From a virus (taxonomy: Duplodnaviria > Heunggongvirae > Uroviricota > Caudoviricetes): a stretch of 14,762 nt of DNA. The notes beneath the pieces were generated by a model. That model did no database searches and was not told the origin of the DNA. It saw nothing but the letters and a program-made list of their open reading frames with translations. The DNA is taken from the IMG/VR virus record IMGVR_UViG_2684622581_000004, positions 1 to 14,762 of that record; one strand, given 5' to 3'. A program made the translations under genes and the position numbers. Shown in pieces: positions 1 through 14,285 of this stretch (positions within the stretch are counted from its first letter, which is position 1; every line of letters begins with the position of its first letter).

Positions 1-1248
1 ATGGCACTGAATATTCCATTCAGAAATGCGTACTATCGTTTTGCATCCAGTTACTCATTTCTCTTTTTTATTTCCTGGTCGCTGTGGTGGTCGTTATACG
101 CTATTTGGCTGAAAGGACATCTAGGGTTGACAGGGACGGAATTAGGTACACTTTATTCGGTCAACCAGTTTACCAGCATTCTATTTATGATGTTCTACGG
201 CATCGTTCAGGATAAACTCGGTCTGAAGAAACCGCTCATCTGGTGTATGAGTTTCATCCTGGTCTTGACCGGACCGTTTATGATTTACGTTTATGAACCG
301 TTACTGCAAAGCAATTTTTCTGTAGGTCTAATTCTGGGGGCGCTCTTTTTTGGCCTGGGGTATCTGGCGGGATGCGGTTTGCTTGACAGCTTCACCGAAA
401 AAATGGCGCGAAATTTTCATTTCGAATATGGAACAGCGCGCGCCTGGGGATCTTTTGGCTATGCTATTGGCGCGTTCTTTGCCGGCATATTTTTTAGTAT
501 CAGTCCCCATATCAACTTCTGGTTGGTCTCGCTATTTGGCGCTGTATTTATGATGATCAACATGTGTTTTAAAGATAAGGATCACCAGTGCGTAGCGGCG
601 GATGCGGGAGGGGTAAAAAAAGAGGATTTTATCGCAGTTTTCAAGGATCGAAACTTCTGGGTTTTCGTCATATTTATTGTGGGGACGTGGTCTTTCTATA
701 ACATTTTTGATCAACAACTTTTTCCTGTCTTTTATGCAGGTTTATTCGAATCACACGATGTAGGAACGCGCCTGTATGGTTATCTCAACTCATTCCAGGT
801 GGTACTCGAAGCGCTATGCATGGCGATTATTCCTTTCTTTGTGAATCGGGTAGGGCCAAAAAATGCATTACTTATCGGTGTTGTGATTATGGCGTTGCGT
901 ATCCTTTCCTGCGCGCTGTTCGTTAACCCCTGGATTATTTCATTAGTGAAGCTGTTACATGCTATTGAGGTTCCACTTTGTGTCATATCCGTCTTCAAAT
1001 ACAGCGTGGCAAATTTTGATAAGCGCCTGTCGTCGACGATCTTTCTGATTGGTTTTCAAATTGCCAGTTCGCTTGGGATTGTGCTGCTTTCAACGCCGAC
1101 TGGGATACTCTTTGACCACGCAGGCTACCAGACAGTTTTCTTCGCAATTTCGGGTATTGTCTGCCTGATGTTGCTATTTGGTATTTTCTTCTTGAGTAAA
1201 AAACGCGAGCAAATAGTTATGGAAACGCCTGTACCTTCAGCAATATAG
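1..1248 (+). CDS. cscB: Sucrose:H+ symporter (oligosaccharide:H+ symporter, LacY family, MFS)
   Basis: 415-aa ORF, highly hydrophobic with 12-TM-like pattern; N-terminus MALNIPFRNAYYRF... matches my recollection of E. coli CscB; clear LacY-family resemblance. Stop TAG at 1246-1248. Confidence 0.85.
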   Translation: MALNIPFRNAYYRFASSYSFLFFISWSLWWSLYAIWLKGHLGLTGTELGTLYSVNQFTSILFMMFYGIVQDKLGLKKPLIWCMSFILVLTGPFMIYVYEPLLQSNFSVGLILGALFFGLGYLAGCGLLDSFTEKMARNFHFEYGTARAWGSFGYAIGAFFAGIFFSISPHINFWLVSLFGAVFMMINMCFKDKDHQCVAADAGGVKKEDFIAVFKDRNFWVFVIFIVGTWSFYNIFDQQLFPVFYAGLFESHDVGTRLYGYLNSFQVVLEALCMAIIPFFVNRVGPKNALLIGVVIMALRILSCALFVNPWIISLVKLLHAIEVPLCVISVFKYSVANFDKRLSSTIFLIGFQIASSLGIVLLSTPTGILFDHAGYQTVFFAISGIVCLMLLFGIFFLSKKREQIVMETPVPSAI

Positions 1249-1256
1249 ACGTAAAC

Positions 1257-1300
1257 TTTTCCGGTTGTTGTCGATATCTCCCTATCCCTCAACCGGAAAA
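1257..1300. repeat. 11-bp perfect inverted repeat (TTTTCCGGTTG / CAACCGGAAAA) with 22-nt loop just after cscB stop
   Basis: Read directly; no U-tract follows on either strand, so not a canonical intrinsic terminator. Confidence 0.3.
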
Positions 1301-1687
1301 TAATAATACTAAAGTGCTTAGCCCTGCTAATAATCACCTAATCCAAACGCCTCATTCATGTTCTGGTACAGTCGCTCAAATGTACTTCAGATGCGCGGTT
1401 CGCTGATTTCCAGGACATTGTCGTCATTCAGCGACCTGTCCCGTGTATCACGGTCCTGCGAATTCATCAAGGAATGCATTGCGGAGTGAAGTATCGAGTC
1501 ACGCCATATTTGCTATCAGGATTCTGTGTGATGGTTACATCGCCCGGCCCAGGGCTGTTTAGTCATCAGCGCTTTCTGACAGTGCTGAGATTTCAACCTG
1601 TTGCAGTAAAAATGAGTAGATATAAGGCAAGTGTGCTGCCAAACCTATCTTTTACGGGGTGAAGGTAGATTTCGTTTGAAGGGTATC

Positions 1688-1702
1688 TGGTGTCCCCTGC
1701 AG
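1688..1702 (-). other. Prophage attR core: copy of argW tRNA-Arg 3' end (CTGCAGGGGACACCA on minus strand)
   Basis: Minus-strand 15-mer is identical to the 3' terminal sequence of argW as I recall it; lies 73 nt beyond the torI stop; core sits inside a 7-bp inverted repeat CCCCTGC...GCAGGGG (1694-1726). Confidence 0.65.
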
Positions 1703-1759
1703 ACATCTACTTGACGCGGCAGGGGATTGATTAGAATGGTGTTTTTTAGGTGTGAGAAA

Positions 1760-1781
1760 TATTTTACCCGCTATTTTACCC
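1760..1781. repeat. Tandem direct repeat TATTTTACCC x2 (12-bp period) overlapping torI 3' end, adjacent to attR
   Basis: Read directly; position between RDF gene and att core fits arm-type/RDF binding sites (inference). Confidence 0.3.
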
Positions 1782-1976
1782 ATTGGCGCGGCTTAAGAGC
1801 TTATTTTTGAATTCACAATGGTCACGATATAACCATCTTGCTCGCCCGTGGATAACTTTGGCTTTTGGCAGGTCGCCGGACTTAATCCGGTCATAGATGA
1901 AGGTTTTACCAAAGCCAGTATCAGCCATGATGAATTTCAAATCAACTAGGGAATCAGGCTGTAGTTCGTGTTGCAT
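1776..1976 (-). CDS. torI: Excisionase-like recombination directionality factor / Tor inhibitor (AlpA-Xis family winged helix)
   Basis: 66-aa ORF MQHELQPDSLVDLKFIMADTGFGKTFIYDRIKSGDLPKAKVIHGRARWLYRDH...; matches my recollection of E. coli TorI; RBS GGAG about 9 nt upstream; last gene before attR. Confidence 0.8.
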   Translation of the reverse strand: MQHELQPDSLVDLKFIMADTGFGKTFIYDRIKSGDLPKAKVIHGRARWLYRDHCEFKNKLLSRANG

Positions 1977-1995
1977 GAGTGCTATCTCCGAATAG

Positions 1996-2011
1996 GGAAT
2001 CGAACCTGCAA
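1996..2011 (-). other. 16-nt tRNA T-arm fragment (TTGCAGGTTCGATTCC) identical to the argW segment immediately 5' of the att core
   Basis: Minus-strand 16-mer in the torI promoter region; similarity does not extend into the rest of a tRNA, so this is a fragment, not a gene. Confidence 0.4.
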
Positions 2012-2107
2012 ATCAGGTAATAAAAATACGCTCAATGACGGCGATGGTAGATCAGGATATTTTAAGAAACTGACAGGCCTCATCGAGTGTGAGGCTGTAT
2101 GGCTCTA

Positions 2108-2413
2108 TTATTTCACCTCTTGTTGTGACATTGTTGAAAAATGGATACCAGCTCGTTGCTGCCAGACGATCCAACCGAGAGTCATATCCCATGCCATGTA
2201 TTCGTTATCGCCGTTTTTTGCTCTCCGACGATCTACTAAGTCACCGAAACGCTTTTCCATGAATAATTCATAAGCTTCGCGTTCATCTAGTTCTACTTCC
2301 AGAGATAGGAGTGCGATTTCATAAGCACGGCGCTCAATATCGTCTCGCACGTCAAGGCTGCTGATACGCTCTTTAATTTCTTTAATCAGTTCTTTGTCGG
2401 TAAAAGTGGTCAT
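2108..2413 (-). CDS. yfdT: Hypothetical prophage protein (YfdT-like, 101 aa)
   Basis: ORF with GGAGG RBS; start overlaps upstream stop (TAATG); size and position match K-12 CPS-53 yfdT as I recall it. Confidence 0.55.
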   Translation of the reverse strand: MTTFTDKELIKEIKERISSLDVRDDIERRAYEIALLSLEVELDEREAYELFMEKRFGDLVDRRRAKNGDNEYMAWDMTLGWIVWQQRAGIHFSTMSQQEVK

Positions 2414-2775
2414 TATGCTCCAGCCTCCGGTGCTTTTGGCATTACTGCCCAGTGAGTGATATTGACGTTTTCAAGGTCCCCGACCTGAAATGTCCACTGC
2501 CATTCTCCGGTTTCTTTTTGCCCCCAGGTGTACCAGAGAGAACGCCAGCCAATTAGCCAGCCTTCTCCGTTAGCATCGAATAACAAAACACTTTCATTTG
2601 CTGGTGGCAGTTCAGTTGACACTGGTATTGCTTTGTTTTCCTGTGCTGCACATTTAGCTTCAAGCGCATCGAATTTGCGCACCAGGTATTCAGCATCTGT
2701 TTCATTCACTTTCAGATCTCGCGGTACACATCTCCCACGAAGAAACCCTTCCATTTCGAAAACATTCATGCGCAT
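2413..2775 (-). CDS. yfdS: DUF551-family phage protein (YfdS-like, 120 aa)
   Basis: C-terminal W-rich motif ...GWLIGWRSLWYTWGQ...NITHWAVMP typical of DUF551; GGAG RBS; overlaps upstream gene by 10 nt. Confidence 0.6.
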   Translation of the reverse strand: MRMNVFEMEGFLRGRCVPRDLKVNETDAEYLVRKFDALEAKCAAQENKAIPVSTELPPANESVLLFDANGEGWLIGWRSLWYTWGQKETGEWQWTFQVGDLENVNITHWAVMPKAPEAGA

Positions 2776-3302
2776 TTGCGTAACTCCGATAACTCGTTAA
2801 AACGTTCCATAAACATCCCGTAGGCATGGCCCGGTGCCAGTGGAATCACGTTGAACATCTCTGTTGCCGGGATGCCTTCCAGTACAGGCCAGAAAGAGCC
2901 ATCATCAAGCCCGAGATCGCGGCGTTCGGTTGCCAGCATGATGAGATCGGCATATTTCACAGGCGTGCTCATAACCGGGGGTAACCCGTATTTCTCACGG
3001 ATTACGGCGTCTATTTTTTCTTCCATCCGTTTATAGTCAGGAAGAAGGCGTTTCAGTGGCGCGGGGATGTCCTGACAATAAGCTTCTGTTGCATCATGCA
3101 TTAACGCTTCAAAAGCAAATTCCTGCGGTACCAGCTGGCTGCAAAGCACCGCATGTTGGGCGACGCTGTAGAAGTGTGAAAGATGTCCTGCAAAGCGACA
3201 GATATTTGAAAGGGAAACCGCGATATCGTTAATATCGATGTTGTCTTTATTTATCCTGTCATAATAAAAATGCTTCCCGGAAAAAGTTTTAATAAATGAC
3301 AT
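2766..3302 (-). CDS. yfdR: HD-domain phosphohydrolase (5'-deoxynucleotidase, YfdR/YfbR-like)
   Basis: HD motifs (AQHAVL...ALMHDATEAY); start chosen at internal ATG 3302-3300 with GGAGAA RBS 5 nt upstream, giving 178 aa; the longer ORF to 3365 has no RBS. Confidence 0.7.
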   Translation of the reverse strand: MSFIKTFSGKHFYYDRINKDNIDINDIAVSLSNICRFAGHLSHFYSVAQHAVLCSQLVPQEFAFEALMHDATEAYCQDIPAPLKRLLPDYKRMEEKIDAVIREKYGLPPVMSTPVKYADLIMLATERRDLGLDDGSFWPVLEGIPATEMFNVIPLAPGHAYGMFMERFNELSELRKCA

Positions 3303-3396
3303 TTTGTTCTCCACGTTATATGCGCTGCACCGCGCTGAAATTTGGTTAAAGAAAAACCTCGCCATCAGGCGATTATTGAGTCAATTACGTTTCCAT

Positions 3397-3418
3397 AAAT
3401 GCCCCCGCAGGGGCATTT
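3397..3418 (-). terminator. Perfect 9-bp stem hairpin (AAATGCCCC-cgca-GGGGCATTT) 11 nt downstream of the yfdQ-like stop
   Basis: Read directly; weak U-tract, so a terminator or RNA-processing role is uncertain. Confidence 0.25.
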
Positions 3419-3430
3419 GCAGTAATGAAA

Positions 3431-4255
3431 TCAGGCGGTGAAAGTACCAATAAAGGTTTCTACTTTGCTGTCTTTGAACTTCTCAACAAGCAGATCACGA
3501 AATTCGTTAGCCATTTCCTCCTGCACTGCTTCCAGCTGAATAATGCGTAGTACCAGTACAGGACGATCGCCAGTGATAATGCTGAGGCGTAATTTAAACG
3601 GACGTTCTTTCAGACCTTCAAACGGAACGCATTTAAATTCAAATGCCACTGGCATAATGTCTTTGGTCTTCGCTTCGACAGACTCCATCAGGGAGCGTTT
3701 GCCGCTGAAGTCATTATCTTCAAAATCAGCTGTCTGGTTCGCTTCAATTGTGATTTTACGGATCGCCGCAGCCGCTTTGGTTGCCTGAATGGCGTCACCA
3801 TTAGCATCAAAGCCCACAAGGTAGTCGGCCCAGTCTTCAATCCATTCTGCCAGTGACTTCTGGGAGTTACGCTCGCCGTTAACAGACAACAGGGCAGAGA
3901 ACGGTGCTGTCTTTTTCAGTTTGAGAGTGGCGGTGTTATCTGCGTGACCTGGTTCATCAATAGTACCCAGGTTAAGCACACTGACGGCTCGCATATTATC
4001 GGCATCGATAAAGCAGCGGGTGCCTTCATCTGCAAGATCTTTAGAATAACGGGTAAAGTCATCGATGCTGGCAGTGGAAAGCGCACCACGGAAACGGAAG
4101 CGATTTAAATTAAATTTTTCCAGATCATGAATGCGGAAATTCTCAGGCAATGCCACAGCATCGGCACCAATCTTACTGATAATTTCATTAACACCCTGAG
4201 CAGAAATAAGGGCATGGATTTGATTAATTGTGGTTGCGTCTAAGTTCTGAGACAT
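3431..4255 (-). CDS. yfdQ: DUF2303-family prophage protein (YfdQ-like, 274 aa)
   Basis: 274-aa ORF with GAGGA RBS; size and neighbourhood match K-12 yfdQ as I recall it. Confidence 0.6.
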
Positions 4256-4320
4256 AATAAGTCCTCACTATATAAAGATATTCAGTGATGAGATAAATAA
4301 TCAGTTTATTAAGAACGATA

Positions 4321-4683
4321 TTAACGACCTGCTGCGCGGAGTTTTCCGTCAGGCTCACCGGCAAGAGTCAGTAATTGTCCCTGGTCTTCCTGCAGAATAG
4401 TCAGGCGACCACCGCGATTGACATACATCGGCGTTTCGGTGGTGTCTTCTTCGGAAATTTTCCCGCGGTTAGTCGGGCGAACATATGAGAGTTTGTGTTT
4501 GATTTTCACTCGGTTCTCATCAAACGGTTCGATTTCTAGGTTGAGCGAGACCTTACCTTTGGTTCTCGTGTTCATCACACCGGAAGCGACTTCACTGAGA
4601 ACTGCGCCGATTTTGGTTTCAAATACGCCGCCGTCCAGCTCCCCGATAAATGCCTGCACATCAGTACTGCGTTCGCTAGCCAT
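4321..4683 (-). CDS. yfdP: Hypothetical prophage protein (YfdP-like, 120 aa)
   Basis: Start at ATG 4683-4681 with GAGGAG RBS 7 nt upstream; the 226-aa extension to 5001 runs through GC-rich Pro/Arg-rich sequence and is rejected. Confidence 0.55.
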   Translation of the reverse strand: MASERSTDVQAFIGELDGGVFETKIGAVLSEVASGVMNTRTKGKVSLNLEIEPFDENRVKIKHKLSYVRPTNRGKISEEDTTETPMYVNRGGRLTILQEDQGQLLTLAGEPDGKLRAAGR

Positions 4684-5151
4684 TTTGCTGCTCCTCATCA
4701 TATCGACCCTGCAAGGTCGGTTAGTTTCTCCACAAAACAGAGAAGAACACCTGCGGTGACTGCCGCCCGGATGGATTGGGTTATGAGCCCGTCGTCCGGT
4801 GATGCTCTTCTCTGTTTTGTAAAAAGGACGGTACCAGCCGGAAGCAAGGGTACAAGCTGGTACCGCCAAGACTACACACAGCATAAAGTTGTGGTGCCGG
4901 GTGCCTCCCGGTGCCTGGCGAAGGTTGCACACCAGGCGGGTGGGTATCCACAGAAGGTCGACTGTCAGCCTCAACCTTAACCCGCGTGCGCTGAGCCGCA
5001 TTCACCACAACGCTAAGGATTCTCTCTGGTTGAAAATACTTAGCTGTTATGTGCCTGCTTTTAGCCACATCAGGCGAGGTGGACCTAGTTATTCCCCAAC
5101 AACAAGGATTCGGTTAATCTGGTTATCCCCAACAACGCAAAAGGAAAAGAA
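4684..5151. other. GC-rich, hairpin-dense noncoding island (candidate structured ncRNA or cis-regulatory leader)
   Basis: No credible ORF in six frames; 15-bp perfect inverted repeat 4732-4746/4806-4820; 10-bp stem 4829-4838/4856-4865; further stems 4897-4911 and 4913-4938; direct repeats GTTATYCCCCAACAAC at 5088-5103 and 5121-5136; GC far higher than the flanking AT-rich genes. Confidence 0.45.
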
Positions 5152-5586
5152 ATGTCCGGTAATATCTATACGCTGTACAAATCCCACTGTGAAAATGTTG
5201 GAAAGTATCGGGGCATTGAAATCAGTGGGGTAGTGTCATCAGTCGAAATAAGCAAAGTTGAATCAAGGGCAACATTACTTACTCTTCTGGACCTTGTCTT
5301 ACATGAGCACCGGAAGAAATTCGGCACTCCCTATAATCAGTTGAATGGGAAAAAGGCTCTGGTTCACCTTATTCTGATGAAGCATCACTGGATGCCAAAA
5401 CAGATTAATGAGATGAAATTTGATGAACTTCTTCTTTCAATTCAGGATGAACTCACACTTGATAAAATAAGCGTAACCGCCCAGAAATTTTTAGATTATC
5501 GAGACTGGAGATCACAAATTCATCACTTTGATGATTTTGACGAAAATGAATGGGATCCTAATTTGTCTGCACAATATCTAAAGTAA
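5152..5586 (+). CDS. Orphan hypothetical protein (144 aa), AT-rich, opposite strand to the early-left operon
   Basis: ATG with AAGGA RBS 6 nt upstream; protein-like composition; no family recognised; markedly lower GC than neighbours. Confidence 0.55.
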   Translation: MSGNIYTLYKSHCENVGKYRGIEISGVVSSVEISKVESRATLLTLLDLVLHEHRKKFGTPYNQLNGKKALVHLILMKHHWMPKQINEMKFDELLLSIQDELTLDKISVTAQKFLDYRDWRSQIHHFDDFDENEWDPNLSAQYLK

Positions 5587-5764
5587 CATCCTGTGATAAA
5601 ACCGTGATTTCCTGATCCAGTTTTTTTAAGGAGTCTATTGTTTCCTGTCGATAAGACAGCACTTCACGAAGCTGGTTTATAGCTGCCAGCTTCTTTGTCA
5701 TCCACTCATAAATTTCCTCATCTGTGTAGCCAGGCGCGACGATTTTGGGTTCTGTTTTGTGCAT
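5558..5764 (-). CDS. Small acidic hypothetical protein (68 aa), first ORF downstream of PL
   Basis: ATG 5764-5762 with GAGGAG RBS at 7-nt spacing; overlaps the 3' end of the convergent 144-aa ORF by 29 nt; not Arg-rich, so not N-like. Confidence 0.5.
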   Translation of the reverse strand: MHKTEPKIVAPGYTDEEIYEWMTKKLAAINQLREVLSYRQETIDSLKKLDQEITVLSQDVTLDIVQTN

Positions 5765-5809
5765 TTCACATCTCCTCAAGTTATCAGTTACTTGTTGATG
5801 GGGACCAGA

Positions 5810-5821
5810 TTGTTAAAGAGC
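5810..5821 (-). promoter_or_regulatory. rrn-type boxA (GCTCTTTAACAA) in the PL leader; nut-like antitermination element
   Basis: Minus-strand 12-mer matches the rrn boxA core as I recall it (TGCTCTTTAACAATTTATCA); flanked by hairpins at 5824-5841 and 5776-5793. Confidence 0.5.
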
Positions 5822-5823
5822 TA

Positions 5824-5846
5824 AGCGTCCTGTAGGGCGCTTTTTT
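5824..5846 (+). terminator. Stem-loop (AGCGTCC-tgta-GGGCGCT) followed by T6: intrinsic terminator on the plus strand, or boxB-like hairpin on the leftward transcript
   Basis: 7-bp stem with one G-U pair, 4-nt loop, U-run only on the plus strand; would end the transcript of the 144-aa gene. Confidence 0.5.
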
Positions 5847-5930
5847 GTTGCTAACGAATCATCCTGGACTTCATATGCCCCAGGCGGCTACTTCGTGGGC
5901 GTCCTGCCTGTTTGTTGTTTCTCTTGGGTA

Positions 5931-5959
5931 CATTATGTATCTCAAAGGTACATTGTCAA
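5931..5959 (-). promoter_or_regulatory. Leftward early promoter PL (-35 TTGACA, 16-17 bp spacer, -10 CATAAT) overlapped by GGTACA operator half-sites
   Basis: Minus-strand hexamers read directly; GGTACA at 5927-5932 and 5947-5952 resemble the OR half-sites. Confidence 0.55.
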
Positions 5960-5998
5960 GTATAAAAAAACCTGCCGAAGCAGGTTCATAAACATTGA

Positions 5999-6673
5999 TT
6001 AGGCTTTGATTTTGTATCTTCTTGGTTTTCCTGAGAAAATCACAGTACCAATTATAGAGCAATTACCGTTGATCTTGATGTAAGGCTCAGGCCAGTTTGG
6101 GTTTAACGCTTTGAGATAACGCTGTGTCCCATCTTCTATCAACCTTTTGAAGGTGGTTTCACCTGTATCGTGCATCAATGCAATAACGTCGTCACCGTGG
6201 CAGGCAGGTACTTCAGGATCGACAAAAATCATGTCTCCCGGGCGGTACTCATCAATCATTGAATCACCTATCACCCGCAAGATATAAGTCATTTCCCCAC
6301 AGGGTACAGGGCAGGGATACGTTTCTGCTGTGCTCAAATCAACCTCAGAATATCCAACTTCTTTCCATGCTCCGGCCTGTACCCATGATATGACAGGGAC
6401 TAATGTGATTTGTTTATTAGTGATTGAAACATCAGGTTTTTTTGTGATGTTCGTTGTCTGGTGTTCTTGATCGAGCCATCCGACAGGCAGGTCGAAACAT
6501 TTTTCGATGTGTCGTGCCATGCTGTCACCGATATTTTTAGTAGCACCATCTCCCATAAACCTGCTGGTCTGGGTTGGCTCGCGATCAATCATAGTGGCAA
6601 AGGAAGAATTCCCGCCAACACCATCTCTCAGTTTTCTGGCGTTAGACCGCCGGATGTCATGGATTGTTTTCAT
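5999..6673 (-). CDS. cI: CI-like prophage repressor (N-terminal HTH, C-terminal S24 LexA-type autopeptidase)
   Basis: 224 aa; S24 catalytic Ser in VIGDSM and Lys in TFKRL; Ala-Gly candidate cleavage site (VQAGAW); divergent from a cro-like gene. Confidence 0.85.
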   Translation of the reverse strand: MKTIHDIRRSNARKLRDGVGGNSSFATMIDREPTQTSRFMGDGATKNIGDSMARHIEKCFDLPVGWLDQEHQTTNITKKPDVSITNKQITLVPVISWVQAGAWKEVGYSEVDLSTAETYPCPVPCGEMTYILRVIGDSMIDEYRPGDMIFVDPEVPACHGDDVIALMHDTGETTFKRLIEDGTQRYLKALNPNWPEPYIKINGNCSIIGTVIFSGKPRRYKIKA

Positions 6674-6688
6674 AACGAAATTAAAACC

Positions 6689-6757
6689 CTTGTACCGTTA
6701 AGGTACAAGTATCTTGAAGGTTCATTTCAATCATGTAATATGTACACCGGAGGTACA
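6689..6757. promoter_or_regulatory. OR operator region: palindrome CTTGTACC-N5-GGTACAAG (6689-6709) and palindrome TGTACA-N5-GGTACA (6741-6757)
   Basis: Perfect inverted repeats read directly, flanking and overlapping the PR hexamers. Confidence 0.6.
6714..6741 (+). promoter_or_regulatory. Rightward early promoter PR (-35 TTGAAG, 16-bp spacer, -10 TAATAT)
   Basis: Hexamers read directly, 23 nt upstream of the cro ATG; second operator overlaps -10/+1. Confidence 0.55.
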
Positions 6758-6763
6758 TATCGT

Positions 6764-6964
6764 ATGAAAGCGTATTGGGACTCTTTAACCAAAGAACAGC
6801 AGGGCGAGTTGGCCGGAAAAGTTGGCTCAACACCTGGCTACTTACGGCTGGTTTTCAATGGCTATAAAAAAGCCAGTTTTGTGCTGGCTAAAAAACTTGA
6901 GCAATGCACGTCAGGTGCAATTACGAAATCTGACTTAAGACCGGATATCTATCCGAAAGATTAG
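6764..6964 (+). CDS. cro: Cro-like small HTH regulator (66 aa)
   Basis: Divergent from cI across the operator region; GGAGG upstream; the 167-aa ORF-track version is an antisense extension into cI and is rejected. Confidence 0.6.
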   Translation: MKAYWDSLTKEQQGELAGKVGSTPGYLRLVFNGYKKASFVLAKKLEQCTSGAITKSDLRPDIYPKD

Positions 6965-6995
6965 CAGAACACTTTCAATTTTTAACCACAGAACG

Positions 6996-7559
6996 ATGAG
7001 GCTAATCGTGGGTAAGCATCACTGGAAAATAGAAAAACAGCCTGAGTGGTACGTGAAAGCTGTCAGAAAAATTATCGCGGCGTTGCCGGGTGGTTACGCT
7101 GAAGCGGCTGACTGGCTCGATGTAACAGAAAACGCTTTATTCAACCGCCTTCGTGCAGATGGCGATCAGATTTTCCCGCTGGGATGGGCAATGGTTTTAC
7201 AGCGTGCTGGTGGCACTCACTTCATTGCTGATGCTGTGGCGCAGTCTGCAAATGGCGTCTTTGTGTCTCTTCCTGACGTCGAGGATGTGGACAACGCCGA
7301 TATTAACCAGCGTCTGCTGGAAGTCATTGAACAGATCGGCAGTTATTCAAAACAGATTCGTTCAGCAATCGAAGACGGTGTAGTGGAACCGCATGAGAAG
7401 ACAGCAATTAACGACGAGTTGTACCTCTCAATTTCGAAGCTGCAGGAGCATGCAGCACTGGTCTACAAAATTTTTTGCATTTCAGAAAGTAATGACGCCC
7501 GCGAGTGTGCAGCTCCGGGCGCCGTGGCGTGTCGTGACTGTGGAGAAACTAACGCATGA
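6996..7559 (+). CDS. CII-like phage regulatory protein (putative; YdaT/CP76-like)
   Basis: Position immediately after cro; 187-aa ORF; alternative GTG start at 7008 has a better RBS (GAGG); family assignment is from weak recollection. Confidence 0.4.
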
Positions 7560-7894
7560 ACAGTTTAACAACACACTACCGTCGCTCGCAACTGATTGCG
7601 CTTCCTGTACCGGGTGGAAAAGCGAAGGTGGAGTATTGCTATGCAGTGAATGTACCAGGTGACAGGGAAATTGTAACCCACAGCTTTGCAGAGTGGGCTG
7701 TGGGTGATTTCAACCGGCAGAAGGAGACAGTCCTTTGCGACAAGTTAACCGCTGGTTCAAAGATCACTACGGAGTGCCCGTCAGAGTCATTCGTTGGGAG
7801 CCGGAAACACAACGGGTTATCTACCTCCGTGAAGGCTATGAGCATGAGTGCTTCAGCCCGCTCGAACAGTTTCGTCGTAAATTCAGGGAAATAG
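7556..7894 (+). CDS. Hypothetical protein, apparently frame-disrupted (frame changes at about 7705-7740)
   Basis: ATG overlaps upstream stop (ATGA) with GGAGAA RBS; N-terminal 60 aa look protein-like, the C-terminal part is Ser-rich junk, while the -1 frame from TTG 7734 (AAGGAG RBS) to 7914 gives a good globular sequence. Confidence 0.3.
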
Positions 7895-7903
7895 AGGTCG
7901 GTC

Positions 7904-8845
7904 ATGAGCACTAAATTAACCGGCTATGTATGGGATGGTTGCGCTGCGTCAGGCATGAAATTATCCAGCGTGGCAATTATGGCCCGCCTGGCTGATTTCA
8001 GTAATGACGAAGGTGTGTGCTGGCCATCAATTGAAACCATTGCCCGTCAGATTGGCGCGGGGATGAGTACCGTCAGAACGGCTATCGCACGGCTGGAAGC
8101 AGAAGGCTGGTTAACGCGTAAGGCGCGTCGCCAGGGTAACCGCAATGCGTCGAATGTTTATCAGCTTAACGTTGCGAAGCTTCAGGCAGCGGCATTTTCT
8201 CAACTGTCAGATTCTGACCCGTCAAAATCTGATGCATCAAAATCTGACCCGTCAAAATTTGATGCGTCGAAATCTGGCAAAAAAGCGGGTTTTCACCCGT
8301 CAGAATCTGGCGGGGATCCGTCAGTAAAATCAAAACATGATCCGTCAGATAAAAAAACTTCTCGTCCGGACGCTTCGCAACCGGACACGCAGACGGCTGA
8401 ACAGGAGTTTTTAACTCGCCATCCTGATGCGGTTGTATTCAGCCCTAAAAAGCGCCAGTGGGGAACGCAGGATGATTTGACCTGCGCACAGTGGCTCTGG
8501 AAAAAAATCATCGCCCTGTACGAGCAGGCCGCCGAATGTGACGGCGAGGTGGTTCGTCCCAAAGAACCGAACTGGACAGCCTGGGCAAACGAAATTCGCC
8601 TGATGTGTGTGCAGGATGGTCGTACTCACAAACAAATCTGCGAGATGTACAGCCGCGTCAGCCGCGATCCGTTCTGGTGCCGTAACGTGCTCAGCCCGTC
8701 GAAGCTGCGGGAAAAATGGGATGAGCTTTCCCTGCGCTTATCGCCGTCCGTCAGCACGCACACAGAAAAACGTGAAGACCCGTACTTCAAAGCCAGTTAC
8801 GACAATGTGGACTACAGCCAGATCCCGGCAGGATTCAGGGGGTGA
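7904..8845 (+). CDS. Replication initiator (lambda O-like, N-terminal winged HTH) with internal iteron origin
   Basis: 313 aa; AGAGG RBS; N-terminal HTH-like region; central low-complexity DPSKSDASKS repeats encoded by DNA iterons. Confidence 0.65.
   Translation: MSTKLTGYVWDGCAASGMKLSSVAIMARLADFSNDEGVCWPSIETIARQIGAGMSTVRTAIARLEAEGWLTRKARRQGNRNASNVYQLNVAKLQAAAFSQLSDSDPSKSDASKSDPSKFDASKSGKKAGFHPSESGGDPSVKSKHDPSDKKTSRPDASQPDTQTAEQEFLTRHPDAVVFSPKKRQWGTQDDLTCAQWLWKKIIALYEQAAECDGEVVRPKEPNWTAWANEIRLMCVQDGRTHKQICEMYSRVSRDPFWCRNVLSPSKLREKWDELSLRLSPSVSTHTEKREDPYFKASYDNVDYSQIPAGFRG
8213..8357 (+). repeat. Iteron array (candidate ori): two 30-bp tandem repeats plus further CCGTCAG copies, followed by an A-rich tract
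   Basis: TCTGACCCGTCAAAATCTGATGCATCAAAA at 8213-8242 and near-identical copy at 8243-8272; CCGTCA core at 8219, 8249, 8296, 8318, 8342. Confidence 0.6.
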
Positions 8846-9336
8846 TTATGAGTCTTTTGAATGAAGTTCAGAAATTCATTGAAGCCCATCCTGGGTGTAC
8901 TTCCGGAGACATTGCTGATGCTTTTGCAGGTTACTCACGGCAGCGCGTTCTGCAGTCAGCAAGCAAGTTACGTCAGAGTGGGCGTGTGGCTCACCGTTGT
9001 GAAGGGGATACACGCAGACATTTCCCGCGCCAGACAAAGATATCGCCGGAGGCGGAACGGCAACCAGTTCGTGAAACCAGACCTGTGCGCAATTTCTATG
9101 TCGGCACTAACGATCACCGGGTGATTTTGTGCCTGACCCGCCAGGCTGAAGAACTGGAGTCAAGGGGCTTATACCGTCGTGCTGCAACCGTGTGGATGGC
9201 GGCATTCCGTGAAAGCCACTCCCAGCCAGAACGAAACAATTTTCTGGCGCGTCGTGAGCGGTGCTTACGGAAAAGCAGCAAGCGCGCTGCATCGGGTGAA
9301 GAGTGGTATCTGTCAGGGAATTACGTGGGGGCTTAA
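8842..9336 (+). CDS. yfdN: PerC-family-like transcriptional regulator (YfdN-like, 164 aa from GTG; alternative ATG at 8848)
   Basis: Motif RQAEELESRGLYRRAATVWMAA resembles the PerC/Pch signature; overlaps the upstream stop; size matches K-12 yfdN as I recall it. Confidence 0.5.
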   Translation: MIMSLLNEVQKFIEAHPGCTSGDIADAFAGYSRQRVLQSASKLRQSGRVAHRCEGDTRRHFPRQTKISPEAERQPVRETRPVRNFYVGTNDHRVILCLTRQAEELESRGLYRRAATVWMAAFRESHSQPERNNFLARRERCLRKSSKRAASGEEWYLSGNYVGA

Positions 9337-9989
9337 TGAGTAATAAATATTGTCAGGCGCTGGTGGAACTGCGGAACAAACCAGCCCATGAACTGAAGGA
9401 AGTGGGCGATCAGTGGCGCACGCCGGATAACATTTTCTGGGGAATTAACACCCTGTTTGGTCCGTTTGTTCTGGATCTGTTCACTGACGGTGATAACGCC
9501 AAATGTGCCGCGTATTACACGGCGGAAGACAACGCGCTGGCGCATGACTGGTCAGAACGTCTTGCGGAGCTTAAAGGTGCTGCCTTTGGTAATCCCCCAT
9601 ACAGCCGCGCCAGTCAGCATGAGGGGCAATACATCACCGGCATGCGTTACATCATGAAGCATGCCAGTGCCATGCGTGATAAAGGCGGGCGCTATGTTTT
9701 CCTGATCAAAGCTGCCACCAGCGAAGTGTGGTGGCCGGAAGATGCAGATCATATTGCTTTTATTCGCGGGCGTATTGGTTTTGAACTGCCTGCCTGGTTT
9801 ATCCCGAAGGATGAGAAGCAGGTGCCGACAGGCGCTTTCTTCGCTGGTGCTATTGCTGTTTTCGACAAGACCTGGAAGGGACCGGCAATCAGCTACATCG
9901 GGCGCGATGAACTTGAGGCATGTGGTGAGGCGTTTCTGGCGCAGGTTCGCCAGCAGGCGGAAAAACTGGTCAGGGAGATGGCGGCATGA
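9336..9989 (+). CDS. Phage N6-adenine DNA methyltransferase (Dam-like, orphan)
   Basis: Catalytic NPPY motif (FGNPPYSR); start at ATG 9336 overlapping the upstream stop (TAATG); no adjacent restriction endonuclease. Confidence 0.8.
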   Translation: MSNKYCQALVELRNKPAHELKEVGDQWRTPDNIFWGINTLFGPFVLDLFTDGDNAKCAAYYTAEDNALAHDWSERLAELKGAAFGNPPYSRASQHEGQYITGMRYIMKHASAMRDKGGRYVFLIKAATSEVWWPEDADHIAFIRGRIGFELPAWFIPKDEKQVPTGAFFAGAIAVFDKTWKGPAISYIGRDELEACGEAFLAQVRQQAEKLVREMAA

Positions 9990-10312
9990 CGACGTTAACT
10001 CAATGCCAGCAGCAGGTGCTGGATATGCTGATTTCTTACCAGAAAGAACGTGGCTTTCCGCCAACCAATCAGGAGGTGGCAACCATGCTGGGATACCGTT
10101 CAGTGAATGCAGCAGTGGAGCATCTTCGCGCACTGGAGAAAAAAGGCGTCATCACGATAAAGCGTGGCGTGGCCCGGGGGATAACGCTTCATACCGCGGT
10201 GAAGGCCGACGACAGCGAGGCGGTCGAGATTATCCGCGCACTGCTTGCCGGTGAGGAAAACGGCAGGCTGCGTGCAGCCCACTGGTTACATGAGAGGGGC
10301 CTGAAAGTATGA
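9986..10312 (+). CDS. LexA N-terminal DNA-binding-domain-like protein (no S24 peptidase domain)
   Basis: 108 aa; strong resemblance to the LexA winged-helix DBD (QQQVLDMLISYQKERGFPPT...LRALEKKGVI); ATGA overlap with the MTase stop. Confidence 0.6.
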   Translation: MTTLTQCQQQVLDMLISYQKERGFPPTNQEVATMLGYRSVNAAVEHLRALEKKGVITIKRGVARGITLHTAVKADDSEAVEIIRALLAGEENGRLRAAHWLHERGLKV

Positions 10313-10698
10313 AGCTGAACCTGCCTTTTCCGCCCAGCGTGAACACGTACTGGCGACACCCCAACAAAGGGGCGTTTGCTGGTAAGAGCCTGATAAGCGC
10401 GGCGGGGCGAAAATTCCAGAGCGCGGCGTGCGCAGCAATAGTTGAGCAGTTACGTCGTCTGCCGAAACCAACGTCGGCACCTGCTTCAGTGGAGATCGTG
10501 TTGTTTCCTCCGGATAACCGGATCCGCGATCTGGACAACTATAACAAGGCGCTGTTTGACGCCCTGACCCACGCGGGTGTGTGGGAAGACGACAGTCAGG
10601 TGAAAAGAATGCTGGTGGAGTGGGGACCGGTTATCCCGGAAGGGAAGGTCGAGATCACTATCAGTAAGTACGAGAAAACGGCGGGTGCAGCCGCCTGA
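10309..10698 (+). CDS. rusA: Holliday junction resolvase RusA
   Basis: 129 aa with RusA-like N-terminus (LPFPPSVNTYWRH) and DLDNYNKALFDALT motif; ATGA overlap with upstream gene. Confidence 0.8.
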   Translation: MKLNLPFPPSVNTYWRHPNKGAFAGKSLISAAGRKFQSAACAAIVEQLRRLPKPTSAPASVEIVLFPPDNRIRDLDNYNKALFDALTHAGVWEDDSQVKRMLVEWGPVIPEGKVEITISKYEKTAGAAA

Positions 10699-10717
10699 TC
10701 AAGAGGAGAAACGAAGT

Positions 10718-11515
10718 ATGAATAATCTGATGGTCATTGATGGTATTGAAGTTCGTCGTGATGCTTTTGGGCGTTACAGCCTGAACGATCTGCACAGGGC
10801 TGCCGGTTCTCTGGATAAGCATAAGCCTGCATTCTGGCTCCGCAATGAGCAAACTGAACGTTTAATAAGCGAGTTGCAGATTTGCAACTCGGTCAATATA
10901 GAGCCAGTTAACGTTATTCGTGGCGGAAATAACCAGGGGACGTATGTCTGCAAAGAACTGGTGTATGCCTATGCAATGTGGATCAGCCCGTCATTCCATC
11001 TGAAGGTGATCCGTACTTTCGACATGGTAACCAGTGCACCGGAAAAATTATCCGGACAGGCTGCTGACAAGATGCAGGCTGGTGTGATTCTGCTGGACTT
11101 TATGCGCCGGGAATTAAACCTGTCTAACTCTTCAGTGCTTGGTGCCTGTCAGAAACTCCAGGAGGCTGTTGGCTTACCGAATCTGGCACCGCGCTATGCC
11201 ATTGATGCTCCTGCTGACGCGCCTGATGGCTCAAGCCGCCCCACGCTGTCACTGAGTGCACTGCTGAAGCAGTATGGTATCCGCCTGACAGCTAATCAGG
11301 CATATCACCAGATGGTGAAGCTGGGGATCGTCGAGCAGCGAGAACGGTACAGCCGTACCACGATTAACAACATCAAAAAATTCTGGTCGCTGACAGCGAA
11401 AGGCTGCATGTTCGGCAAGAATATCACCAGTCCCGCAAATCCGCGCGAGACGCAGCCGCATTTCTTCGAATCCCGATTCCCTGAGCTGTTAAAGCTGCTC
11501 GATACCGTTCATTGA
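10718..11515 (+). CDS. KilA-N domain protein (antirepressor-like)
   Basis: N-terminal KilA-N signature (IDGIEVRRDAFGRYSLNDLHRAAG...FWLRN); start at ATG 10718 with AGGAG RBS rather than the RBS-less 10685. Confidence 0.7.
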   Translation: MNNLMVIDGIEVRRDAFGRYSLNDLHRAAGSLDKHKPAFWLRNEQTERLISELQICNSVNIEPVNVIRGGNNQGTYVCKELVYAYAMWISPSFHLKVIRTFDMVTSAPEKLSGQAADKMQAGVILLDFMRRELNLSNSSVLGACQKLQEAVGLPNLAPRYAIDAPADAPDGSSRPTLSLSALLKQYGIRLTANQAYHQMVKLGIVEQRERYSRTTINNIKKFWSLTAKGCMFGKNITSPANPRETQPHFFESRFPELLKLLDTVH

Positions 11516-11516
11516 G

Positions 11517-12512
11517 GTGACCGTGAGAGCACTACTGACCCCTGAAATTGCCCCGCGTATGGGGATCGTATTGTTCAGGCCAGGTTCAGAGTTGATGCCC
11601 CTGTTTATGCAGAGGCGTGTCCTGCTGGAGCCTGAGCCGGAACGTTATTCATCTTTCGCCAGTGGTGCCGTTCCGGCGGCATCACAACCGCTGGCGGATG
11701 ATCCTGCCGTTCGGGCCGTGTTCCGCAATGAGGCAGTGATCCGTCGTGCTGGTGGCGTGGAATGTCTTGAAAGCTGGTTACTTCGTGAAAAAGGCTGCCA
11801 GTGGCCTCATTCCGACTGGCACAGCGAGAACATGACAACAATGCGACACGCTCCGGGCGCAATCCGTTTGTGCTGGCACTGCGATAACCAGCTGCGCGAT
11901 CAGTTCACGGAACGGCTGGAATCAATGGCAACGGATAACTGTGCCCGCTGGGTGTTGTCTGTTGTGCGTCGGGATCTCGGTTTTGATGATAGTCACGTTG
12001 TGACAATGCCGGAACTGTGCTGGTGGCTGATTCGTAATGACCTGGCGGATGCCTTACCGGAAAGTGCAGCCCGTAAGGCACTGAGATTACCGAAGCCTGT
12101 TGTGCAGGCGGTCACCCGGGAAAGTGACCTTGTGCCTTCGGTTCCTGCCACCAGCATTATCCAGGATAAAGCGAAAAAGGTGCTGGCGCTGAAAGTGGAT
12201 CCGGAGTCGCCGGAGTCTTTTATGTTACGCCCAAAACGTCGCCGCTGGGTTAATGAAAAGTACACGCGCTGGGTTAAGACACAGCCGTGTGCATGTTGTG
12301 GAAAGCTTGCTGATGATCCCCACCACCTGATAGGTCACGGTCAGGGTGGAATGGGAACAAAAGCGCATGACCTCTTTGTGTTGCCTTTGTGCAGAAAGCA
12401 TCACGACGAGCTGCATGCGGATACCGTGGCATTTGAAGAGAAGTATGGCTCCCAGCTGGAGCTGATATTTCGTTTTATCGATCGTGCGCTGGCAATAGGC
12501 GTACTGGCGTAA
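11517..12512 (+). CDS. DUF968-family protein with C-terminal Cys/His (HNH-like) motif
   Basis: C-terminal CACCG...HHLIGHGQGGMGTKAHD...LPLCRKHHDELH; GTG start with overlapping GAGG; start codon uncertain. Confidence 0.55.
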   Translation: MTVRALLTPEIAPRMGIVLFRPGSELMPLFMQRRVLLEPEPERYSSFASGAVPAASQPLADDPAVRAVFRNEAVIRRAGGVECLESWLLREKGCQWPHSDWHSENMTTMRHAPGAIRLCWHCDNQLRDQFTERLESMATDNCARWVLSVVRRDLGFDDSHVVTMPELCWWLIRNDLADALPESAARKALRLPKPVVQAVTRESDLVPSVPATSIIQDKAKKVLALKVDPESPESFMLRPKRRRWVNEKYTRWVKTQPCACCGKLADDPHHLIGHGQGGMGTKAHDLFVLPLCRKHHDELHADTVAFEEKYGSQLELIFRFIDRALAIGVLA

Positions 12513-12525
12513 GTGGAGAACGAGC

Positions 12526-13278
12526 ATGAACCTTGAAGCCTTACCGAAATATTACTCCCCAAAATCTCCAAAATTGAGTGATGACGCACCGGCGACAGGC
12601 TCTGGTGGTTTAACAATTACGGATGTGATTGCTGCGCAGGGGATGGTGCAGTCGAAAGCACCGCTTGGGTTTGCCTTATTCCTGGCAAAAGTTGGTGTTC
12701 AGGATCCTCAGTTTGCGATTGAAGGTCTGCTCAATTACGCGATGGCACTGGATAACCCGACATTGAATAAATTGAGTGAAGAAACCCGGCTACAGATTAT
12801 TCCTTACCTTGTGAATTTTGCCTTTGCTGATTATTCCAGGTCTGCGGCAAGTAAGGCTCGCTGTGAGCATTGTGCTGGTAATGGATTTCATAATGTATTG
12901 CGCGAAGTGGTGAAACACTCCAGAAGCGGGGAATCTGTTATCAAGGAAGAGTGGGTGAAGGAACTATGTCAGCATTGTCATGGTAAGGGAGAAGTCAGCA
13001 CAGCGTGCAGAGGGTGTAAGGGTAAAGGTATTGTCCTGGATGAAAAAAGGACCCGGCTTCATGGCACGCCTGTTTATAAGATTTGTGGGCGTTGCAATGG
13101 AAACCGGTTTAGCCGTTTACCAACCACACTGGCGCGGCATCATGTCCAGAAGCTGGTACCAGATCTGACGGATTATCAGTGGTACAAAGGATATGCAGAT
13201 GTCATTGATAAACTGGTGACAAAGTGCTGGCAGGAAGAAGCATATGCTGAGGCGCAATTAAGAAAAGTGACGAGATAA
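12526..13278 (+). CDS. Late-gene antitermination protein Q
   Basis: 250 aa with multiple CxxC zinc-binding pairs (CEHCAGNG, CQHCHGKG, CRGCKGKG, CGRCNGN); sits directly upstream of a late promoter/terminator and the lysis genes; GGAGAA RBS. Confidence 0.7.
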   Translation: MNLEALPKYYSPKSPKLSDDAPATGSGGLTITDVIAAQGMVQSKAPLGFALFLAKVGVQDPQFAIEGLLNYAMALDNPTLNKLSEETRLQIIPYLVNFAFADYSRSAASKARCEHCAGNGFHNVLREVVKHSRSGESVIKEEWVKELCQHCHGKGEVSTACRGCKGKGIVLDEKRTRLHGTPVYKICGRCNGNRFSRLPTTLARHHVQKLVPDLTDYQWYKGYADVIDKLVTKCWQEEAYAEAQLRKVTR

Positions 13279-13309
13279 ATGATTTTCGCCGAAGATAGTG
13301 ACATGATTC

Positions 13310-13338
13310 TTGCATTTTTCAAAAGATCTGGTTAGGAT
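13310..13338 (+). promoter_or_regulatory. Candidate late promoter PR' (-35 TTGCAT, 17-bp spacer, -10 TAGGAT)
   Basis: Hexamers read directly, 32 nt after the Q stop and upstream of a terminator. Confidence 0.4.
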
Positions 13339-13384
13339 TCTCCTAACGATGGGCTTTGTGTGTCTACCATTGATAATCTTCAAG

Positions 13385-13408
13385 AAACCGCCACCGAGCG
13401 GTTTTTTA
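13385..13408 (+). terminator. Candidate tR' intrinsic terminator (AAACCGC-caccga-GCGGTTT + T-run)
   Basis: 7-bp stem followed by TTTTTTATT; placed where Q-dependent antitermination would act. Confidence 0.45.
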
Positions 13409-13566
13409 TTGATGTCAATTGTGTTTTTAAGGCTCTCCTTCCTTAAAGTGTGTTGTACAAAAAACTGGCAGCCAGCTACGCTCATTTTGAAAAAGTGACA
13501 CCCTTCAATGTTTCTTTTGAATGGAATTGCTACCCATAAATCTCTATCAAAAACAGGAGAGCATAT

Positions 13567-13809
13567 ATGGTGGAGCGTTGTTCTGTTTGTGAGCAGTCAT
13601 TAAGTTATTCACGAGAAGTTGAACAAGATGGCGTTGAATATAAATCTTGCCCAAAATGTTCTGCTGATGCCGGAGTGCACGTTTTTTATAAAACAATAGA
13701 CTTTGGTTATAGGGATATGGGAGACGGAAGGCATATCGTTCAGTCATGGTGTCCGGCTTGTCGTTCTGGTGAAAAACCTTCTATACCACCAGCATTTAAA
13801 TGTTGTTAA
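13567..13809 (+). CDS. Small zinc-ribbon protein (80 aa, CxxC pairs); moron between tR' and the lysis cassette
   Basis: AGGAGA RBS 7 nt upstream of ATG; CSVC...CPKC...CPAC motifs; own terminator downstream. Confidence 0.55.
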   Translation: MVERCSVCEQSLSYSREVEQDGVEYKSCPKCSADAGVHVFYKTIDFGYRDMGDGRHIVQSWCPACRSGEKPSIPPAFKCC

Positions 13810-13828
13810 CTCAATGAATTATAAAAAG

Positions 13829-13853
13829 AGGCTGCCTGTGGGCGGCCTTTTTT
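13829..13853 (+). terminator. Intrinsic terminator (AGGCTGCC-tgtg-GGCGGCCT + T6)
   Basis: 8-bp stem with one G-U pair, followed by TTTTTTG; directly after the zinc-ribbon ORF. Confidence 0.6.
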
Positions 13854-13940
13854 GTGCACTACGCAACTTTTGCGACTCAGCGCTATAACCAGCTTCTTTC
13901 CCTTCACTCGTTGCACTTCCGATAACCGGAGGTGGGAATT

Positions 13941-14282
13941 ATGAAAATGCATAACGATCCTCATTCCTGGTCTGACTTACTTGAATTGTTACAGAGCTGG
14001 TGGCGTGGAGACACACCGTTGGGCGCAGTAATTATGTCGATCGTTATGGCTGGCTTGCGCATTGCCTATTTTGGCGGTGGTGGTGGCTGGAAGCGAAAAA
14101 CGCTCGAGATTTTGCTCTGTGGCGCTCTGACTCTGACTTTTGCATCCGCTCTTGAGTATGTCGGATGGCCTAAATCTCTTTCTGTTGCCATTGGTGGCGG
14201 CGTTGGGCTGATCGGGGTCGATGCTATTCGTGGGGCTGCAATGCGAGTAATCGGTAACAAATTTGGTAGCTCGAAGGAGTAA
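13941..14282 (+). CDS. S: Holin (lambda S-like class I, dual-start MKM)
   Basis: GGAGGTGGG RBS then ATG-AAA-ATG; hydrophobic TM-like segments; immediately upstream of endolysin; the GTG at 13932 from the ORF track is rejected. Confidence 0.75.
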   Translation: MKMHNDPHSWSDLLELLQSWWRGDTPLGAVIMSIVMAGLRIAYFGGGGGWKRKTLEILLCGALTLTFASALEYVGWPKSLSVAIGGGVGLIGVDAIRGAAMRVIGNKFGSSKE

Positions 14283-14285
14283 TTT

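Follow-up and report, generated by a model that had tools for sequence, protein, structure and literature searches.

A convergent, 3'-overlapping pair of an ECs1072-family gene and a YdfC-like gene in a variable prophage cassette, and its candidate role in phage exclusion

The 14,762-nucleotide (nt) stretch of DNA analysed here (hereafter the window; IMG/VR virus record IMGVR_UViG_2684622581_000004, positions 1 to 14,762) carries beside its cI repressor gene an open reading frame (ORF), 5152-5586, that an initial annotation made from the sequence alone had described as a low-GC orphan gene, possibly of exclusion type. We found that this ORF belongs to the ECs1072 family of phage-associated proteins, and that it converges with and overlaps, at its 3' end, a short YdfC-like gene on the opposite strand. 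These two genes very probably form a functional pair, and they behave as a single unit of gain and loss when related phage sequences are aligned. The conserved pairing, the operon positions at which it occurs and the unmatched fold predicted for the ECs1072-family protein are new relative to the existing description of the family (NF033230). Although the pair is a strong candidate for laboratory study, it does not amount to a demonstrated defence system.

Conservation, position and mobility of the gene pair

ORF 5152-5586 is a genuine gene, a point on which we have next to no doubt. In comparison with a 72%-identical E. albertii copy, the ratio of non-synonymous to synonymous substitution rates (dN/dS) was 0.22 when the ORF was read as annotated, and the five other frames all gave higher values. 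The ribosome-binding site (RBS) AAGGA that the initial annotation had placed 6 nt before the start codon was confirmed (Table 1), as was its observation of a GC content below that of the surroundings (38.2% in the ORF, compared with 48.2% in the window and 52.7% in the 467 nt upstream, 4685-5151). The encoded protein is 100% identical to gp36 of Shigella phage SfIV and to proteins in five other phage records (tblastn). It matched the NCBIfam model NF033230 (ECs1072 family phage-associated protein) with 157.8 bits against a cut-off of 70, residues 4-144 aligning to profile positions 2-142, and phrog_5286 with E = 1.5e-90 over residues 1-144 of 144. Since it is a member of this catalogued family, the gene is not an orphan. 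The family labels name no function: NF033230 is labelled 'hypoth_equivalog' and 'unknown function', phrog_5286 has a likewise functionless label, and NCBIfam yielded nothing beyond the family's own model.

An exhaustive profile search recovered 76 cluster representatives (50% identity), nearly all of 145-155 residues. The protein has the single-domain length of its family (about 142-155 residues), and every locus that we examined was a prophage or a phage. Members occur in Escherichia, Shigella, Salmonella, Klebsiella, Enterobacter, Serratia, Xenorhabdus, plasmid-prophages of Arsenophonus and one Pseudomonas sp., the context of this last type being limited to a 1.2-kb contig. In an alignment of 42 sequences, H72 and W134 are invariant and L46, L50, R54, L64, G66, A69 and W80 are nearly so. 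An AlphaFold (AF2) model computed from this alignment is an all-helical globule (pLDDT 93.4, pTM 0.88) with no recognisable fold and no counterpart in the PDB or BFVD. The protein is predicted to be soluble (GRAVY -0.47, isoelectric point (pI) 6.4). With a maximum 19-residue Kyte-Doolittle mean of 0.84, the idea of a membrane protein of the SieB or RexB type was dropped.

The convergent partner is the first gene of the cI-controlled pL operon. It matched phrog_1744 (E = 7.8e-35) and shares 39-41% identity over 97% of its length with the annotated YdfC of Qin-type phages (19 phage records). A second partner type, phrog_3501, is remotely homologous to phrog_1744 (hhalign probability 90.7%, E = 1.2e-6), and both types combine an N-terminal motif, EP.i.a.G.t..E.l.eWm..K, with a coiled coil that follows it. 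Partner proteins are acidic, with a pI of 4.7-5.9. YdfC has no known activity (PMC5069750), and we found no functional data on ECs1072, YdfC or SfIV in the literature.

All paired lineages have the two genes overlapping, by 14-317 nt. In phrog_3501 versions the overlap crosses the near-palindrome TGGGATCC, and the W-D-P sequence is read in both proteins. That the W134-D-P motif is a mere by-product of the overlapping partner was considered and rejected, the motif being kept at overlaps of 14-35 nt and also where there is no partner. Therefore, it is the tail of the partner that looks overprinted on the W134 motif.

To assess conservation of the pairing, a hidden Markov model (HMM) was built from the small convergent proteins and applied to 12 distinct lineages. 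It found a convergent overlapping ORF in 10 of these, with E-values from 1e-37 to 9.5e-4, and in 168 of the 171 hits of the redundant locus set. One further lineage, outside the 12, has a convergent overlapping gene of 125 residues. The convergent partner was seen in E. albertii, ST64B, Klebsiella phage KPP5665-2, Serratia quinivorans and Sakai Sp4, as well as in an Enterobacter type, Serratia marcescens, Xenorhabdus stockiae, metagenomic contigs and a locus whose protein cluster includes a Xenorhabdus poinarii protein. Moreover, the identity matrices of the two proteins are correlated (Mantel r = 0.73, p = 4e-4; Spearman 0.32, p = 0.008).

The pair occupies three operon positions, and in each of them the partner is co-directional with the operon and upstream, leaving the ECs1072-family gene antisense. 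At the first position, which is that of the window and of loci L005, L174, L175, L176 and L181, the pair directly follows the repressor-controlled pL. At the second it lies between the late antiterminator gene Q and the holin gene (ST64B, the Klebsiella phage, Serratia and Xenorhabdus). At the third it is part of the early-right or replication operon, as in Sakai Sp4, where it stands between a cII-like gene and O, and in L177. A strong terminator separates Q from the partner in the Klebsiella phage, so that the partner there needs antitermination.

The two genes are also absent together. SfV and PhiR29_1 have both flanks in common with the window and lack both genes, and the blastn breakpoints delimit a mobile unit of two genes that starts at 5083 or 5137 and ends at 5804 or 5852. 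These limits replace the 4684-5850 cassette of the initial annotation. The self-contained layout that it described is supported by the RBS, the plus-strand terminators and a slot that is empty or otherwise filled in SfV and PhiR29_1; the annotation had missed the partner gene and the 29-nt overlap. The whole cassette is present in 407 of 5426 complete E. coli genomes (~7.5%). Any part of the 801-nt query is matched by 1406 E. coli genomes, ~1000 of which match only the pL/terminator flank. In PhiR29_1 the same leader and terminator enclose a plus-strand phrog_1244 gene encoding a coiled coil and a zinc ribbon. The phage backbone therefore has a plus-strand expression slot with exchanged cargo.

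More broadly, the yfdP-to-cI interval (5083-5852 in the window, with the corresponding slot in L002, L003, L182, L183 and L184) is a hot spot at which SfV/KplE1-like phages differ in cargo. Other contents of this interval include a 97-residue minus-strand ORF (SfV orf33), a 121-residue HTH_17 protein (mEp460) and small plus-strand ORFs (720R4), and the cdtI phage has almost nothing there.

Transcription signals around the cassette

The window gene is preceded by a duplicated leader (Table 1), the second copy of which holds a weak extended -10-like sequence, TGgTTATCC, at 5120-5128. The same leader (TGGATATCCCCAACAAC) lies 5' of the different cargo gene of PhiR29_1, and a related one (TGGATATCCACAGCAATCACAAGGAAG) lies 5' of a 56%-identical homologue in L004, an unrelated prophage. 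The leader, GGTTAT(T)CCCCAACAAC...AAGGA, is in tandem 5' of the window gene, and the corresponding segments are L003 2790-2840 and about 5960-6000 of L004. It may be a portable promoter/leader or a regulator binding site, GGATATCC being palindromic, and its promoter role is putative. Across loci, 8 of 14 have either a perfect TATAAT or an extended -10-like TGnTAxxxT at a distance of 33-44 nt 5' of the start.

Downstream, plus-strand terminator-like hairpins stand 45-110 nt 3' of the stop codon, within the coding region of the partner, in several lineages. The window has one such hairpin, and similarly placed ones are found in L005, ST64B, the Klebsiella phage, L098 and L101. The plus-strand hairpin with a T-run that had been noted earlier was recovered by the terminator scan at the right end of the slot, and it is kept in PhiR29_1 (5823-5848) despite the different cargo. 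The orientation of the gene, opposite to the early-left operon, is also as first described, since pL and its operators are on the minus strand. As to expression, microarrays of an uninduced culture showed a 2.1-fold change of the Sakai family member at a growth transition (PMC2241611), which is weak evidence of expression in a lysogen.

Different upstream structures were observed elsewhere in the family. The upstream regions in Sakai Sp4 (L013, about 9820-9890) and L177 (about 3925-4000) share GGTGCCGAACCTTCC(T/C)CCGG...GGAGGTTCGACATG. There, complementarity between the upstream CGAACCTTCCTCC and the Shine-Dalgarno region makes a hairpin hiding the RBS, and with it translational control, possible. 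L175 and L176 have a different hairpin directly 5' of the Shine-Dalgarno sequence, with compensatory changes (CTTGG/CCAAG versus GCTGA/TCAGC).

A candidate exclusion mechanism and competing explanations

These features can be read as parts of a switch. In a lysogen, pL would be repressed and the ECs1072-family gene transcribed from its own weak promoter or leader, its transcript ending at one of the two plus-strand terminators (5668-5693 or 5823-5842). Firing of pL, or of pR or pR' at the other positions, would send transcription across the whole gene in antisense and would produce the YdfC-like protein, and antisense transcription and YdfC-like protein together would shut down or neutralise the ECs1072-family protein. 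The latter would act as a lysogen-expressed exclusion or abortive-infection effector to which the cognate antagonist confers self-immunity, and YdfC genes that other phages carry alone would be counter-defence genes. Both the lysogen-specific expression of the ECs1072-family gene and the antagonism between the two products are steps that we infer.

We regard this whole chain, in which firing of the phage operon silences or neutralises a lysogen-expressed effector, as the best of the explanations considered and a reasonable working idea that is nevertheless somewhat improbable as it stands. A role of the pair in defence is a tentative candidate. The fullest version is rather doubtful: a two-protein exclusion and self-immunity system with a new fold that any lytic operon switches off, and to which stand-alone YdfC proteins, such as that of K-12 ydfC in Qin, are the counter-defence. 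If an exclusion and self-immunity role were true, it would bring a new effector fold to prophage-encoded defence, a first function for the y-gene family YdfC, and an example of a defence gene that fits into any lytic operon and is shut off automatically by convergent transcription. Relatives of the cassette are found in prophages of Shigella, Salmonella (ST64B), Klebsiella, Enterobacter, Serratia and Xenorhabdus. Should defence play no part, knowledge of the conserved overlap still corrects annotations.

Several results weigh against such a defensive, antagonistic pair. No partner was detectable beside the gene in L004 and L180 (a 1.2-kb contig), and two close pairs account for part of the Mantel correlation. 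YdfC genes are often carried without an ECs1072-family gene; being common alone, the partner therefore has a life of its own. Searches with PADLOC-DB v2.0.0 returned no family at E <= 0.1 for the gene, the partner or YfdP, and Pfam returned no match for the protein. Foldseek of the model against BFVD gave no match (best E = 1.5), and sequence searches of the PDB, run both with the protein alone and with a profile of 42 sequences, gave only myoglobin noise (E = 0.5). Among the alternative cargo in the same or neighbouring slots none was recognisably defensive, the sole such signal being a weak hit to 'mad1' (mads_1) in one HTH protein, where it overlaps the HTH_17 domain. The promoter evidence for the plus-strand gene in the window is weak, the promoter scan having found no sigma-70 match of at least 9/12 on the plus strand of the window. 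Because SieB, Rex and PADLOC homology are lacking and the promoter evidence is weak, the exclusion or abortive-infection function that had been proposed at the outset can still be put forward only conditionally.

The same pairing and co-divergence data also fit a pair of reversed polarity, an explanation that we hold to be unlikely. Here, the YdfC-like protein would be the active lytic-phase factor, serving for example host take-over or counter-defence, and the ECs1072-family protein its lysogen-expressed antagonist, mopping up leaky YdfC and blocking incoming phages that need a cognate YdfC. The partner is always on the phage operon strand, and YdfC-family genes are more widespread and often stand alone as promoter-proximal early genes, as this explanation would have it; yet no activity of YdfC is known (PMC5069750), and the late production of the partner expected at the Q-holin sites would be an odd timing for a take-over factor. 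Phage conflict may also be the wrong frame altogether. A lysogenic-conversion or host-fitness moron, paired with ydfC as a shared insertion or recombination module, would account for the low GC content, the gene's own RBS and terminators, the variable slot, the lack of similarity to defence families and the growth-phase regulation of the Sakai member (PMC2241611). We consider this quite unlikely, however, because the pair is kept through divergence to ~25-35% identity, at three operon positions and in several genera, always with the 3' overlap, and mere hitch-hiking is thus improbable.

It is also conceivable that the arrangement matters mainly in cis, with convergent transcription acting as a brake or insulator on leaky read-through from pL, pR and pR' that lytic transcription overrides, and with the protein as a minor regulator of the lysis-lysogeny decision. 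The universal 3' overlap, the terminator-like hairpins embedded in the partner's coding region and a cassette that is always just downstream of controlled lytic promoters would agree with such a role, but purifying selection, invariant residues and a confidently predicted fold argue that the protein itself matters, and we judge a mainly regulatory function to be highly unlikely. Finally, the view that a single orphan gene and the upstream structured island (4684-5850) make up one exclusion cassette of the rex or sieB kind can draw on the sieB-like position and orientation and on the gene's own RBS and terminator. As stated, it is largely refuted, since the breakpoints fall at 5082/5136 and 5805/5853. 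The island is a minus-strand RNA that is kept in phages without the gene, the gene is in a known family, a second gene is part of the unit and there is no SieB or Rex homology, which leaves this view with almost no credibility.

Known systems offer partial precedents for an exclusion effector silenced by its own phage. In lambda, sieB (34482-35036, plus strand) abuts the 3' end of N (35037-35438, minus strand), the first gene of pL; the window gene similarly lies antisense in the pL operon and overlaps the 3' end of its first gene, so that in both cases pL transcription must cross the plus-strand gene in antisense. P22 reportedly (work ascribed to Ranade & Poteete 1993) escapes its own SieB through an inhibitor, Esc, together with an antisense RNA (sas) processed from the pL transcript. 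By analogy, SieB/Esc/sas would be the closest working model for the logic proposed here. There are clear differences: the window protein has no predicted membrane segment, a convergent gene of its own, and not an internal in-frame product, provides the putative antagonist, and late operons and early-right ones also carry the cassette. Nor is there sequence similarity to SieB, the family alignment giving an hhalign probability of 0.4% against lambda SieB and no hit to PF14163 (lambda SieB as control, 103.5 bits). Like RexAB of lambda, the gene would be accessory to the prophage and is located beside cI in the immunity region. Whereas rexAB lie between cI and OL/pL in the direction of cI, the window gene lies past pL and is encoded on the opposite strand, and no Pfam hit pointed to Rex homology. 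The rex/sieB-like position of the initial annotation thus held for sieB, with the lambda N/sieB layout, and not for rex.

The dicA-controlled dicBF operon of Qin (ydfA-ydfB-ydfC-dicF-dicB) is likewise an early operon under repressor control that includes a gene of the ydfC type. There, ydfC is followed by a small RNA (sRNA) with a terminator, DicF (PMC5069750), the equivalent in the window being STnc100-like; the sRNAs are unrelated and Qin-type operons have no ECs1072-family gene. Convergent, 3'-overlapping transcription units are present on prophages in the type I toxin-antitoxin systems txpA/RatA and bsrG/SR4. In the present pair, conserved proteins are encoded on both strands. Canonical type II toxin-antitoxin genes are adjacent and co-directional in one autoregulated operon, an arrangement that differs from the convergent, 3'-overlapping one found here. 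BstA is said to be a different, larger protein, with aba as a DNA element within the BstA gene. The concept of a lysogen-expressed effector combined with an element that spares the resident phage is nonetheless the same in BstA/aba (PMC8585504), and the self-immunity is reported to work during lytic replication of the BstA phage. For the pair, a protein and antisense transcription are proposed instead, and no PADLOC BstA model matched. The Gifsy defence protein GiPD474 was set apart as a possible relative by its description alone, as an ATPase-domain protein.

Phage backbone, the upstream small RNA and annotation corrections

Between 4300 and 6100, the window is 97.9% identical to Shigella phage SfIV. 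The window is an E. coli-type chromosome in which an ORF for a LacY-type permease, by eye taken to be the sucrose permease CscB, is followed after ~530 bp by one end of a prophage resembling KplE1/CPS-53/SfV. If the permease is cscB, the site would be the one in the argW/dsdA region at which prophages of the KplE1 type integrate. The 14,762-nt stretch does not include the integrase. After the torI-like ORF, the minus strand encodes homologues of YfdT, S, R, Q and P (names from related phage records). Features are collected in Table 1.

Table 1. Features of the window, with coordinates, strand and basis
Feature	Position	Strand	Basis and remarks
ECs1072-family gene, ATG start	5152-5586	+	ORF list; 144 residues including stop
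Shine-Dalgarno AAGGA	5141-5145	+	Sequence; 6 nt 5' of ATG
Duplicated leader	5088-5145	+	Sequence; GTTATTCCCCAACAACAAGGA 5088-5108, GTTATCCCCAACAAC..AAGGA 5122-5145
YdfC-superfamily partner, 68 residues from ATG 5764	5558-5764	-	GAGGAG RBS; mechanical ORF to TTG 5779
29-nt 3'-3' overlap of gene and partner	5558-5586		Coordinates; adjoins conserved W134-D-P codons (TGGGATCC)
Variable cassette	5083-5852 versus SfV; 5137-5804 versus PhiR29_1		blastn breakpoints 5082/5853 and 5136/5805
Terminator-like hairpin in the partner's coding region	5668-5693	+	Terminator scan; 9-bp stem, then TTTGTCAT
Intrinsic-terminator-like hairpin	5823-5842, T-run to about 5848	+	Terminator scan; right end of plus-strand slot
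pL	-35 TTGACA 5959-5954; -10 CATAAT 5937-5932	-	Promoter scan, 11/12 matches; 16-nt spacer
Two 17-nt operators overlapping pL	5916-5932, 5936-5952	-	Same repeat family as OR region 6691-6757
Terminator-like hairpin, cI transcript	5968-5987	-	SfV equivalent annotated putative rho-independent terminator
cI repressor (Peptidase_S24)	5999-6673	-	Pfam E = 1.5e-26; annotated cI in SfIV
cro-like gene	6765-6964	+	Followed by replication genes, Q-like gene and lysis genes
STnc100/PasD-like sRNA with own terminator	4818-5041	-	RF02076, full-length, 43.4 bits versus gathering score 47, E = 1e-6
torI-like excisionase ORF, 66 residues	1776-1976	-	By eye; HTH_17 match weak; SfIV annotates excisionase here
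LacY-type permease ORF	1-1248		Read by eye, no database search

The structured island that the initial annotation had placed upstream of the gene is real as a structure. The segment 4810-5045 is strongly structured (fold z = -4.85), with a multi-stem core and a terminator. It is the minus strand that scores, as a full-length match to STnc100 slightly below the gathering score, and we read it as an STnc100/PasD-like sRNA. Such an RNA is also present in L005, SfV and PhiR29_1, and scores 108 bits beside the Klebsiella homologue. As it is kept in SfV and PhiR29_1 despite the absence of the gene there, the sRNA belongs to the phage backbone and not to the cassette. On the pL transcript the sRNA lies downstream of the cassette. 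STnc100/PasD sRNAs are usually located between Q and the holin/lysozyme operon (bioRxiv 10.64898/2026.05.13.724894), whereas the copy in the window is in the pL operon just upstream of yfdP, on the strand opposite to the ECs1072-family gene.

Other observations concern this region and its counterparts. A second long inverted repeat, ACAAAACAGAGAAGA...TCTTCTCTGTTTTGT, at about 4733-4820, lies between the sRNA terminator and the start of yfdP. The SfIV annotations gp34 (226 residues) and gp35 cross the sRNA region and are probably spurious extensions. In E. albertii (L005, 3464-3652), isrK (64 bits) and a C4 antisense RNA (82 bits) score strongly within a Phage_ASH-region gene; the window is without both. 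Further along the window, weak 'mir-5880' scores were obtained on both strands of 8205-8279 (E = 0.012 and 0.047). This segment consists of short repeats (TCTGACCCGTCAAAATCTGATGCATCAAAATCTGAC) within the replication gene 7904-8845 that encode a repetitive SDPSKSDASKSD stretch of the protein, and the repeats are most likely origin iterons.

Annotations of the pair itself can be amended in two other phages. In ST64B, the ECs1072-family gene (L009, 3281-3715) is unannotated and its partner (3645-4004) is annotated as the over-extended, 119-residue Sb50, whose N-terminal extension is implausible and covers the likely pR' promoter (4038-4011). In Sakai Sp4 (L013, about 9167-9677), ECs_5703 is annotated and the convergent YdfC-like ORF is unannotated.

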